From: a virus
UHGV virus genome: UHGV-1376262
Reading direction: 5' to 3' (one strand)
DNA length: 58,366 bases
A program made the position numbers and the translations under genes. Positions 6,536 through 17,775 of this stretch are shown here, in pieces (the first letter of the stretch is position 1; every line of letters begins with the position of its first letter). The notes beneath the pieces are model-generated. The model did not search any database. It was not told where the DNA came from and saw only the letters and a list, made by a program, of their open reading frames with translations.

Positions 6536-7150
6536 CTACTCTTTTCTAAATTTTTTAATTTTATCTTTTGCTGATTTAAGAATGTTGCCAACACTGCTTT
6601 TCTTAGGGTATCCTTCAAGCTTGGCAATATCTCTAACAGAGTAACCTTCAATAGCATTTAAACGAAGTATATCCAATTCCTCTGCTGTGAGGTCTGAAAG
6701 CTCAATGTACATCATAATATCCATAATTCCATCATGCTCTCTCAAGTCGTAAGGGTCTTCTGGAATAGCCAAACGCTCCATGGAAGTCTCTTTGAAATAA
6801 TCCTCTGAAACAATCCGTCTATTCATACGGTCTGACCAAAAGCTGTATTCAAAGTTTCCGCACTCGGCGCTAACTCCTGACAATCCACTTCTAACATCGT
6901 CTTGCATATAGTATGAAGATAATAGCTGTGTTAACATTGGATTGGAAGAACCTTCTCCAAACTTCTCTGAATGCAATTCGTAAATGTCTAAACAAAACTT
7001 TTCTCTAACCTCTAGTGGTAACCTAACCTTTAATAACCTTTTGTTAATCAGTCTCTTAATAGCAGCCGCAAAGCTATAAGAGCTTGTAGCTTCCACAATG
7101 TCATTATAGAAGTCATATTCTAGTTTATCAGAGTGTTTGTTTAAACTCAA
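6536..7150 (-). CDS. Phage-encoded sigma factor with a sigma-70 region-4 domain.
   Basis: The C-terminus LTAEELDILRLNAIEGYSVRDIAKLEGYPKKSSVGNILKSAKDKIKKF is a classic region-4 HTH. Confidence 0.7.
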   Translation of the reverse strand: MSLNKHSDKLEYDFYNDIVEATSSYSFAAAIKRLINKRLLKVRLPLEVREKFCLDIYELHSEKFGEGSSNPMLTQLLSSYYMQDDVRSGLSGVSAECGNFEYSFWSDRMNRRIVSEDYFKETSMERLAIPEDPYDLREHDGIMDIMMYIELSDLTAEELDILRLNAIEGYSVRDIAKLEGYPKKSSVGNILKSAKDKIKKFRKE

Positions 7151-16367: not shown

Positions 16368-16400
16368 AAAAAAGAACAGCCCTGTTAAAGGCTGCTCTAA
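16368..16400 (-). terminator. Rho-independent terminator ending the tRNA island transcript.
   Basis: Reverse complement GAGCAGCCtttaacagGGCTGTTC followed by TTTTTTTG. Confidence 0.55.
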
Positions 16401-16479: not shown

Positions 16480-16553
16480 TACGAGGTAGCGGACTCGAAC
16501 CGCTAACCGACAGCTTAGAAGGCTGTTGCTCTTTCCAGTTGAGCTAACCTCGT
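16480..16553 (-). tRNA. tRNA-Arg, anticodon TCT.
   Basis: Manually folded 74-nt cloverleaf. Acceptor ACGAGGT/ACCTCGT is a perfect 7 bp. D stem GCTC/GAGC. Anticodon stem ACAGC/GCTGT with loop CTTCTAA. T arm AGCGG-TTCGAGT-CCGCT. No encoded CCA. Confidence 0.8.
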
Positions 16554-16566
16554 GGAAAACGTATTT

Positions 16567-16680
16567 CTAACGCTTTCTGTTTTTGCGTCTACGAGCAGCT
16601 TCTTCTTTCTTGCGTGCTGCTTCTTGTTCCGCTTTTAAGATCGCTTTGTTCCATGCTTTTTCGTTGGCTCGTTTATCCAT
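16567..16680 (-). CDS. 37-aa highly basic mini-protein (MDKRANEKAWNKAILKAEQEAARKKEEAARRRKNRKR). It lies inside the tRNA island.
   Basis: A GGAGG RBS sits 8 nt upstream of the ATG. It fell below the ORF-track size cutoff. Lies between the tRNA-Ser-side structured region and tRNA-Arg. Confidence 0.45.
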   Translation of the reverse strand: MDKRANEKAWNKAILKAEQEAARKKEEAARRRKNRKR

Positions 16681-17157
16681 TAACAAAACCTCCAATAGTT
16701 TTTATGCAGAGGAGAGGATTTGCACCTCTCAACAAGAGCATTTTACTTGTCTACCTGTTAACTAGGCTGCTCTCAGCACATTCTGTTACCTATTCCGTCA
16801 CTCTGCTGGCGTTAGCAACTTGCCTTTTTCAGCGACTTCACTTAGGGAAGCTACTCTGGTCGCCTATGCTAAACTCTTGGAGCGACTCCCTAAAGTCTTT
16901 TACCAAGAGTCTGGATTTGTTTTACAGCCCATACACCAGTCGTTCGATGAGCCAACAACCTTTAGTAATGGTGGTTGAAATCCATCACCAAGACGTCTCT
17001 TGGATTCCTCCGCTCCTAGTCGTTCTAGCACGCTACGGATTAAGCTTTACAGTAAAGGATTATTGAGTGTTCCCTTTACCAACCTCTTCTTCACACTGCA
17101 TAAAAGCACGTTACGTTTCTTTTCACTTTTATACAGCCCTACTGAGGAATTATGTAA

Positions 17158-17244
17158 CCGAGGAGGAGGGACTCGAACCCCCAAACGCTTTTACACGCCT
17201 ATCGGTTTTCAAGACCGAAGCTTTTCCAGTTATGATACTCCCCG
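17158..17244 (-). tRNA. tRNA-Ser, anticodon TGA. Class II with a long variable arm and a weak D stem.
   Basis: Anticodon arm TCGGT-CTTGAAA-ACCGA. Variable arm TAGGCGTGTAAAAGCGTTT. T arm GGGGG-TTCGAGT-CCCTC. Acceptor CGGGGAG/CTCCTCG. The layout closely parallels B. subtilis tRNA-Ser. The D stem pairs poorly, so it may be a pseudo-tRNA. Confidence 0.55.
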
Positions 17245-17484
17245 AAAACGTGTGAATAAACTCGATGAACTGCTACTGAACGCCTAACCTGAGTTCAATC
17301 TGGCTGCGCAAAGACGCTCGTAGAATCCATCGGGAATACTCACACACGCCCCCCAAGCATGGGTAAACGCGTTACAGCAAACCGAAGTAATACTGCCTTA
17401 GTGGGCGCTCTTGGATTTGCACCAAGGAACCTTTCGGAACGGTTTTACAGACCGCCTGCTTTAACTACTTGCATAAACGCCCAA

Positions 17485-17556
17485 CAAGCTGTGAAGGAAT
17501 CGAACCCTCTCTAACAGTTTTGGAGACTGTTGTGCTAACCATTACACTAACAACTC
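17485..17556 (-). tRNA. tRNA-Trp, anticodon CCA.
   Basis: 72-nt cloverleaf. Anticodon arm ACAGT-CTCCAAA-ACTGT. D arm GTGT-AATGGTTA-GCAC. T arm GAGGG-TTCGATT-CCTTC. Acceptor GAGTTGT/ACAGCTT with two G-U pairs. Confidence 0.65.
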
Positions 17557-17729
17557 ATCTGGCACACAGGAAGCAGACACCACTTGAGCGTTGAGTAGGT
17601 CTTCCTCAAAAAGTCCTCTCTAAAGCTTTGTTCAAGGCTAGCTAAGGTGCAGGTGTTTTTCCTCTAAGCTACCTGTGTGCTTATATCAACTAGGAGCATT
17701 TTCTTTAACGTCGATATTGCCCTTCGACC

Positions 17730-17775
17730 AGCTCTATAGTAATATTACCACATCTTAAAGCATTTGTCAAGTCGT
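17730..17775 (-). promoter_or_regulatory. Strong early promoter driving the tRNA/ncRNA island: TTGACA, 17 nt spacer, TAATAT.
   Basis: Reverse complement reads aaaaagttttaaaaacgacTTGACAaatgctttaagatgtggTAATAT. It points into 17725 down to 16400. Confidence 0.55.

Follow-up and report, generated by a model that had tools for sequence, protein, structure and literature searches.

The locus considered here raises the question of what is represented by two stem-loops with an identical 7-nt loop in the tRNA island of the virus genome UHGV-1376262, a stretch of 58,366 nucleotides (hereafter, the window) that was identified by blastn as a Saphexavirus, an SAP6-like Enterococcus phage, and that is identical to a 58.4-kb metagenome scaffold (L289). 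On the minus strand, hairpin 1 reads GAGAGG-UGCAAAU-CCUCUC (16730-16712; plus-strand stem halves at 16712-16717 and 16725-16730, loop ATTTGCA at 16718-24), and hairpin 2 reads CUUGG-UGCAAAU-CCAAG (17426-17410; plus-strand cttgg at 17410-14, atttgca at 17415-21 and ccaag at 17422-26). A sequence-only reading of the locus had described two such stem-loops, and both are indeed present in the sequence; its positions were right to within one base for hairpin 2 but off by 2-3 bases for hairpin 1 (16715..16732), and the 5-bp stems that it gave to each apply to hairpin 2, the stem of hairpin 1 being 6 bp long. It had also read each hairpin, on the minus strand, as a T arm followed by the 3′ strand of an acceptor stem, which is the arrangement found at both sites. 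The analysis makes it probable that hairpin 2 forms the T arm of a tRNA-Tyr(GUA), and that hairpin 1 is the T arm of an RNA of about 100 nt that derives from tRNA-Leu, lacks an anticodon and mimics a tRNA without decoding.

The two hairpins share an 11-base core, GGUGCAAAUCC (DNA GGTGCAAATCC, minus strand), and the window has no copy of it besides these two. When one mismatch at most was tolerated, 0.6 matches to this core were expected, and two or more appeared in 8 of 100 shuffled sequences. Taken alone, this count is only suggestive, and the shared core becomes meaningful because both of its copies occupy T-arm positions.

The tRNA-Tyr around hairpin 2

Hairpin 2 (17410..17426, minus strand) falls within a class II tRNA-Tyr(GUA) with a long variable arm (17401..17482, minus strand). 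This tRNA was called by ARAGORN and matched over the full model (positions 1-71) by the Rfam tRNA family RF00005 (49 bits, E=4.6e−9), and its cloverleaf, with a 7-nt anticodon loop, is the minimum free energy (MFE) structure. The sequence-only reading had been unable to complete a cloverleaf around either hairpin; this is true of hairpin 1, where the anticodon arm is absent, but not of hairpin 2, which lies within a full cloverleaf, so that the two hairpins are not copies of one new element. Likewise, its suggestion of a family of tRNA-like structured RNAs proved apt for hairpin 1, as described below, and not for hairpin 2.

Apart from its loop, hairpin 2 is ordinary. The tRNA-Tyr departs from the canonical U54-U55-C56 of the T loop, having UGCAAAU with G55, and its D loop (AAGUAGUUAAA) is without GG (G18G19 absent). 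Thus, the elbow of this tRNA must be built differently from that of a standard tRNA. Among 250 ARAGORN tRNAs from 2.3 Mb of fetched loci, the UGCAAAU T loop was confined to this Saphexavirus tRNA-Tyr, and the record of a relative annotates the gene as tRNA-Pseudo-GTA (a tRNAscan-based annotation).

The tRNA-like element around hairpin 1

The surroundings of hairpin 1 were compared with a covariance model, termed R1, which was built from 90 distinct members of a wider family of elements, the window being left out. R1 matched the window copy at full length (16807-16704, minus strand; 49 bits, E=2.4e−10), and the next match in the window was the T arm of the tRNA-Tyr alone (14 bits). According to the R1 alignment, the element (about 16705..16807, minus strand) starts with an acceptor 5′ strand (16806-16801, with 16807 mismatched), followed by U8G9 (16800-16799), a D-loop region GACGGAAUAGGUAAC (about 16799-16785), a central non-decoding arm (about 16784-16731) and the T arm formed by hairpin 1 (16712..16730; 6-bp stem GAGAGG/CCUCUC, loop UGCAAAU at 16724-16718), which runs straight into the CUCUGC of the acceptor 3′ strand (16711-16706). 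Six of the seven acceptor pairs form (16806-16801 with 16711-16706), and the copy reads UG ACGGAAUAGGUA at 16800-16787, in agreement with the U8G9 and the D loop GGAAUAGGUA of the family. The base A16705 is likely the discriminator, and no CCA is encoded. Moreover, the centroid fold of the element retains the acceptor stem, a hairpin immediately 5′ of the T arm, and the T arm itself. No ARAGORN call was made on the element, and no Rfam tRNA match to it was obtained at E-values up to 10.

The exact 19-mer of hairpin 1 was found in 21 viral contigs, mainly SPbeta-like Bacillus prophages together with two tRNA-rich phages; it closes a tRNA-like unit in each of these contigs and is the T arm of the SPbeta-type members. 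For the window-specific 200-320 nt, a blastn search against phage records gave just a 21-nt match over the T arm, and exact-pattern scans of viral and metagenome contigs gave none. The closest relatives of the window (L289-L295) were found solely through the adjoining open reading frame (ORF) of 37 aa.

Architecture and covariation of the family

The family was ascertained by exact pattern, a looser version of which was GGAATAGGTA N55-85 GGTGCAAATCC. Its consensus begins with a 7-nt acceptor 5′ strand, UG and the D arm GCGGAAUAGGUAGACGC, continues with 50-170 variable nt that replace the anticodon and variable arms, and ends with (C)AU, a 6-bp T stem whose loop is usually UGCAAAU, and a 7-nt acceptor 3′ strand. 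By inspection, the middle part forms a nested long arm or an H-type pseudoknot, varying by subfamily, and covariation in this region was seen inside a subgroup from Lactobacillus phages.

A search for covariation had been proposed in the sequence-only reading, and the stems of the hairpin 1 family do covary among the 90 distinct members. In these, 98.5% of the stem cells were paired, compared with 71.7% in shuffled controls and 36-44% with slid partners, and changes on both sides of the stem were seen in 13 of the 16 pairs (405 cells). An acceptor filter was used in choosing the 90 members, which favours the acceptor stem only; in 110 unfiltered elements, the acceptor pairs were each formed in 87-99% of cases, with all four Watson-Crick types represented. 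Furthermore, G.U or U.G combinations outnumbered A.C or C.A by 41 to 7 in the family stems, and therefore the structure belongs to the RNA of this sense. The nucleotides U8 and G9 were invariant (100%) though unfixed by the search pattern, and neither the U preceding the T stem (100%) nor the A preceding that U (88%) was fixed by it. Together with A14, A15 and G18G19, U8G9 and the U/A on the 5′ side of the T stem correspond, in established tRNA structure, to the set of nucleotides that builds the core and the elbow.

Some loci hold more complex arrangements. Three head-to-tail members were found in the tRNA island of L026 (11370-11860, minus strand) and of L032 (2363-2779), where two of the three tandem members are 148-230 nt long and contain additional internal hairpins whose T loops are canonical (GGGGUUCGACUCCCC, CGGGUUCGACUCCCG), which may constitute a double T-loop module. 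In SPP1 (L288, 1165-1215; about 6765-6815 of the record), a second short unit, ACGGAC...GCGCGGGTTCAATTCCCGGAGTCCGT, directly follows the family member and looks like a minihelix of acceptor stem and T arm with a canonical T loop.

Relation to tRNA-Leu and absence of decoding

The family and the real tRNA-Leu genes of the same loci have identical D arms, and the D-arm part of one member gave matches to tRNA-Leu genes annotated in unrelated phages. The R1 scores of the real tRNA-Leu genes were 26-43 bits, compared with 47-86 bits for family members. Moreover, a genuine tRNA-Leu(tag), with anticodon UAG, occupies the slot of the window element in four of the relatives (L291-L293 and L295); its acceptor stem (GCAGAAG/CUUCUGC) is near-identical to that of the window element, and the downstream flank is identical. 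The tRNA-like RNA is retained in L290 and L294, where the sole change in the T stem, from A to G, keeps the pair as G.U. As a separate observation, the group-3 relatives carry an insertion of ~150 nt on the 5′ side of the tRNA-Leu(tag) (L291, about 2700-2890), which is absent from the window, begins with AAATAATCCTTACTGTTAAGG and holds several inverted repeats.

None of the 225 family elements overlapped an ARAGORN tRNA call, and the Rfam tRNA model gave no match to them. An anticodon-like 7-nt loop, with U33 and a purine at position 37, occurred in 17 of 140 elements (12%), compared with 7.5 (5%) in shuffled sequences. A decoding tRNA with an extended arm was also considered, given that the Lactobacillus-phage subgroup has a UUGACAA loop, but it was rejected, as anticodon-like loops are rare family-wide.

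Distribution and genomic placement

The family architecture was found in at least 120 viral contigs and in at least 120 bacterial genomes (one-genome-per-species contigs). Most of the carriers were Bacillota, largely with the element in prophages, and true members also appeared in metagenome-assembled genomes labelled Acidobacteria, Dehalococcoidia, Bacteroidales and Pacearchaeota. In SPP1, the family member sits between genes 9 and 11, and SPbeta-type phages carry it downstream of one long gene, which on its length alone we take to be yonO. A total of 55 out of 225 elements were located 300 nt or less from a tRNA, 60 of 62 being on the same strand, and in the tRNA arrays of tRNA-rich phages the elements lie 5-11 nt from their neighbours, on the same strand. 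Some phages had two to four copies. In temperate phages and bacterial genomes, the element stands between late transcriptional activators and the HNH/TerS/TerL genes, and YopX and Tad2-like accessory genes were found near it in prophages. No RNA annotation was present on the family elements in the GenBank phage records listed, which had nothing or a hypothetical protein at these places, and no Rfam 15 family was found for them. Hairpin 1 apparently reveals a widespread and undescribed class of anticodon-less tRNA-Leu mimics.

Comparison with known RNAs

The family shares with the class II tRNA-Leu of bacteria and phages the acceptor stem, U8G9, the D arm, a core of the A15/U48 type and the T arm. 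It differs from tRNA-Leu in having no anticodon stem-loop and no ARAGORN or Rfam tRNA call, in its T stem of 6 bp (which gives a 13-bp acceptor/T stack), in a T loop that is usually UGCAAAU and not UUCRAnU, and in the variable arm or pseudoknot of 50-170 nt in its middle. The tRNA-like domain of transfer-messenger RNA (tmRNA) likewise joins an acceptor/T module to a long helix and pseudoknots in place of the anticodon arm. However, in contrast to tmRNA, G3:U70 is not conserved in the family, the third pair being U:A, C:G, A:U or G:C and rarely G:U; moreover, there is no tag reading frame, the length is only 100-150 nt, and there were no tmRNA matches with Rfam or ARAGORN.

Other small RNAs offer partial parallels. 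The T4 RNAC and RNAD mature by the tRNA-processing route. They resemble the family in their location within a tRNA cluster but belong to a different phage and host group, and they are likened here by description and not by sequence. These RNAs (also termed species 1 and 2 RNAs) are small stable RNAs in the phage tRNA cluster whose roles are unknown (PMC3014915). The non-proteogenic tRNA-Gly of staphylococci has UGC or UGU instead of UUC in the T loop, lacks pseudouridine 55 and has a non-ribosomal role (PMC7826273). These tRNAs are like the family in the UGC of the T loop, but unlike it in being complete, anticodon-bearing and chromosomal, and they serve the addition of glycine to cell-wall peptidoglycan. 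Many hosts of the family (Bacillus, Paenibacillus) are not known to make tRNA-dependent cross-bridges.

YrlA, mascRNA and the tRNA-like structures (TLS) of plant viruses are, as is the family, non-decoding mimics of the tRNA elbow and acceptor. Compared with a tRNA, YrlA is circularly permuted, and its ends lie in the Ro-binding stem. Neither the family nor the window element had an Rfam match to the YrlA, mascRNA or TLS families. In addition, ROOL, GOLLD and YrlA were rejected for the window region and the family loci, since none matched in Rfam at the gathering score or at E-values up to 10. An RNase P-like RNA, prompted by the motifs ACAGAAUG and GUGAAGUC of the RNase P RNA of B. subtilis, was discarded for want of an Rfam match at E-values up to 10.

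The tRNA island and its other hairpins

On the minus strand, the island is ordered as a promoter-like site (TTGACA-17-TAATAT with TG, 17742..17770, from a consensus scan only), tRNA-Trp(CCA) (17484..17557), tRNA-Tyr(GUA), a 155-nt hairpin spacer and tRNA-Ser(UGA) (17157..17245), followed by ~350 nt of non-coding sequence, the hairpin 1 element, the 37-aa ORF, tRNA-Arg(UCU) (16480..16553) and an intrinsic-terminator-like hairpin with a T run (16373..16398, also from a consensus scan). The Trp, Ser and Arg tRNAs were each found by ARAGORN and Rfam in this same operon. The tRNA-like element and the four tRNAs are thus enclosed by promoter-like and terminator-like sites, and the same terminator was found 3′ of the island in relatives.

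Three further segments of the island deserve description. The leader between the promoter-like site and tRNA-Trp (17558-17741, minus strand) contains a 9-bp long-range pairing, GCACACAGG...CCUGUGUGC, that encloses ~110 nt, and its fold energy is ordinary (z=−1.2). The 155 nt between tRNA-Tyr and tRNA-Ser (17246-17400, minus strand) form a long imperfect hairpin (−63.5 kcal/mol, z=−5.0, 0 of 200 shuffles); this segment is present in L289 and L290 and absent in CCS2 and Ef7.1, where the Tyr-Ser gap is 1-3 nt, and it looks like an inserted element. Finally, the 37-aa ORF (16567-16680, minus strand; MDKRANEKAWNKAILKAEQEAARKKEEAARRRKNRKR) lies directly 3′ of the tRNA-like RNA, encodes a very basic product and has a GGAGG ribosome-binding site. 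It matches phrog_13247, to which no function is assigned, and has a homologue after tRNA-Trp or tRNA-Ser in other Saphexaviruses; its product could be a small RNA-binding protein.

The recurrence of CCAAGA/TCTTGG and the perfect hairpins pointed out in the sequence-only reading are present and clustered in the tRNA island. The window has 15 copies of CCAAGAG/CTCTTGG, compared with 7.3 expected, a number that none of 100 shuffles reached, and four of them fall within 16874-17414 (~540 nt), where roughly 0.07 would be expected; one of the clustered copies forms the 3′ strand of the T stem of the tRNA-Tyr. The placing of the CCAAGAG hairpins in the same family as hairpins 1 and 2 did not hold, as they sit in a separate upstream spacer and are specific to the phage lineage. 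Hairpin A (16989..17004, minus strand) reads CCAAGA-GACG-UCUUGG (−7.0 kcal/mol, z=−1.6), and hairpin B (16871..16912, minus strand) has a 10-bp outer stem, AGACUCUUGG/CCAAGAGUUU, and an inner hairpin, GACUU-UAGG-GAGUC (−17.9 kcal/mol, z=−4.15, none of 200 shuffles being as stable). The comparative support for both is modest. In group 3, hairpin A becomes CCAAGAA-GACG-UUCUUGG, an A and a U having been gained on opposite sides so that the stem grows from 6 to 7 bp, and in L290, L294 and L295 the change of A16875 to G replaces a U-A pair of hairpin B by U.G, a pairing that only RNA of the minus sense tolerates.

Hairpins A and B belong to the non-coding spacer between tRNA-Ser and the tRNA-like RNA (16808..17156, minus strand), which was delimited by blastn and alignments. 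Its 5′ 149 nt (17156-17008) show an identity of about 94% among Saphexaviruses, and its 3′ 200 nt, which include both hairpins, are found only in the sub-lineage of the window. An MFE helix of 16986-16981 with 16951-16946 is broken in group 3, and a hairpin at 17041-17019 shows two compensatory changes in relatives. For the spacer of the main clade, RNAalifold on seven sequences predicted 82 pairs, three of which had a compensatory change.

At the same 3′ position, main-clade Saphexaviruses (KEN03, SAP6) have a diverged tRNA-like unit whose T loop is canonical. Both its acceptor (CCUUAUA/UAUAAGG vs. CCUUACA/CGUAAGG) and its arm (ACAGAA/UUCUGU vs. ACAUAA/UUAUGU) covary. R1 failed to detect these units in KEN03 and SAP6, and they align by position but were not counted as family members. 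Furthermore, most Saphexaviruses have a tRNA-like unit of 99 nt at the place of the window's tRNA-Ser (L001, 1404-1502, KEN03), with a canonical T arm, a 5-bp acceptor and an 8-bp arm with a 14-nt loop; the KEN03 record labels it tRNA-Arg, and ARAGORN made no call. Between the 3′ tRNA-like unit and the terminator, the main clade also carries CATTACCTCCTTTCG (L001, 1960-2000, and equivalents), which resembles the 3′ end of 16S rRNA (anti-Shine-Dalgarno) and whose opposite strand can be read as a 5-codon ORF preceded by a ribosome-binding site.

Alternative explanations

Several points weigh against reading the hairpin 1 element as a functional, non-decoding tRNA-Leu mimic. In the window copy, two of the three pairs of the 3-bp D stem of the family are non-standard and one base is deleted, the outermost acceptor pair is A.A, and the fold energy is ordinary (z=−1.3); with 49 bits, compared with a typical 55-86, it is a weak member that could be decaying. 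As for the family, the conservation of the D loop and T loop was partly imposed by the search pattern, the extra copies found by the model also had other T loops (UUCAAAU, UGUAAAU, UUCGAAU and UGAAAAU), and no conserved partner gene was found. Regarding the features of a leucine acceptor, the core nucleotides are conserved in the family, but an A follows the acceptor stem in no more than 61% of members, so that universal charging by the leucyl-tRNA synthetase (LeuRS) is doubtful. In addition, no description of the family was found in a literature search of limited coverage, and it may already be described; every functional step set out below is one that we infer.

The peculiarities of the window copy could also be explained if it were a decaying pseudogene of the tRNA-Leu of sister phages, with no function of its own, and indeed an intact tRNA-Leu(tag) stands in their equivalent slot, and the degenerate D stem, the mismatched first acceptor pair, the low R1 score and the z-score of −1.3 all fit such a history. 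This is considered unlikely, as the copy keeps the derived characters of the family (6-bp T stem, UGCAAAU and the exact 19-mer common to SPbeta-type members), its 49 bits exceed those of every real tRNA-Leu tested (43 bits or less), the T stem differs in L290 and L294 by one change alone, which keeps the pairing as G.U, and covariation is strong over the whole family. It would be very unlikely, too, that hairpins 1 and 2 and the CCAAGAG hairpins formed one family of free-standing processing-signal stem-loops: hairpins 1 and 2 share the 11-nt core, the CCAAGAG copies are clustered and all of them lie in one transcription unit, but each UGCAAAU hairpin is inside a larger, independently recognised structure, and the loops of hairpins A and B are different, and most relatives lack these two hairpins.

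An intron-containing tRNA-Leu, in which removal of the variable middle would yield a decoding tRNA, might be envisaged for the family from its tRNA-Leu-like 5′ and 3′ parts and from the CUUAA-like remnant directly after the D arm in some members. It is highly improbable, given that the insert has just 50-170 nt (too small for a group I intron), that the flanks give no anticodon stem and anticodon-like loops occur in just 12% of members, that the 6-bp T stem and the usual G55 are unlike those of neighbouring real tRNA-Leu genes, and that such genes coexist in the same arrays. We give similarly little credence to a signal at the DNA level, such as a cos/pac site, an origin or an attachment site: the element is just upstream of HNH/terS in temperate phages and that of phiJL-1 stops 3 bp short of the record's right end, but the 41 to 7 excess of G.U over A.C, the conserved tRNA-core nucleotides, the tRNA-like spacing in virulent phages, in whose tRNA arrays it lies far from the terminase genes, and the place of the SPP1 copy between genes 9 and 11 all argue for an RNA. 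A tmRNA-like RNA, in which the 3′ T arm/acceptor strand would pair with a distal GCGGAGG (17013-17007) and enclose ~300 nt, has a probability close to nil. By inspection, GCGGAGG/CCUCUGC pairs perfectly in the window, including G3:U70, and the MFE structure of 16700-17020 uses this distal pairing. However, the distal strand is not complementary in KEN03 and SAP6 and reads GCGGAGU in group 3, in which the 3′ strand has a local partner, and the local 5′ strand continues into U8G9 and a D loop, as expected for a family member. There is also no conserved tag reading frame, the indels of the region are not multiples of three, ARAGORN called no tmRNA, and the Rfam tmRNA model matched only bare T arms in related loci; thus, a tmRNA identity is refuted by the comparative data, ARAGORN and Rfam.

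Possible function and implications

As a non-decoding mimic of tRNA-Leu, the hairpin 1 RNA would be co-transcribed with the tRNAs of the operon and released from the tRNA transcript by RNase P and RNase Z, and the host would add its CCA, a step proposed because no CCA is encoded. It would then adopt an L shape in which the core and the elbow are those of a normal tRNA, with a 12-13 bp acceptor/T stack. Since it has no anticodon, it would have to act through proteins that read the tRNA body or the 3′ end. Phage tRNAs counter host systems that destroy tRNAs. One conjecture, which we consider possible rather than probable, is that the RNA may be a decoy or competitor for a host factor of tRNA-Leu or class II tRNAs, be it a defence nuclease, a toxin or LeuRS; this role is favoured because the element replaces a real tRNA-Leu of sister phages and because the accessory regions also hold Tad2-like genes.

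The family accounts for 'empty' intergenic stretches upstream of terminase genes and within tRNA arrays. It can be tentatively proposed that phages of Bacillota, including SPP1 and SPbeta, may widely encode tRNA-matured, anticodon-less tRNA-Leu mimics that act on the tRNA-handling machinery of the host. If this were true, the mimics might neutralise nucleases or toxins that target tRNAs, or might hijack LeuRS or another reader of the tRNA body, and the UGCAAAU T loop, common to the odd tRNA-Tyr of this phage, may be part of the same evasion strategy. The family is abundant and occurs in the genetically tractable SPP1 and SPbeta, and with the gene and the covariance models at hand, and loci that can be deleted from model phages, its function is directly testable. 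A widespread tRNA body without an anticodon would be of no direct help to translation, and it points to another use of tRNA mimicry.

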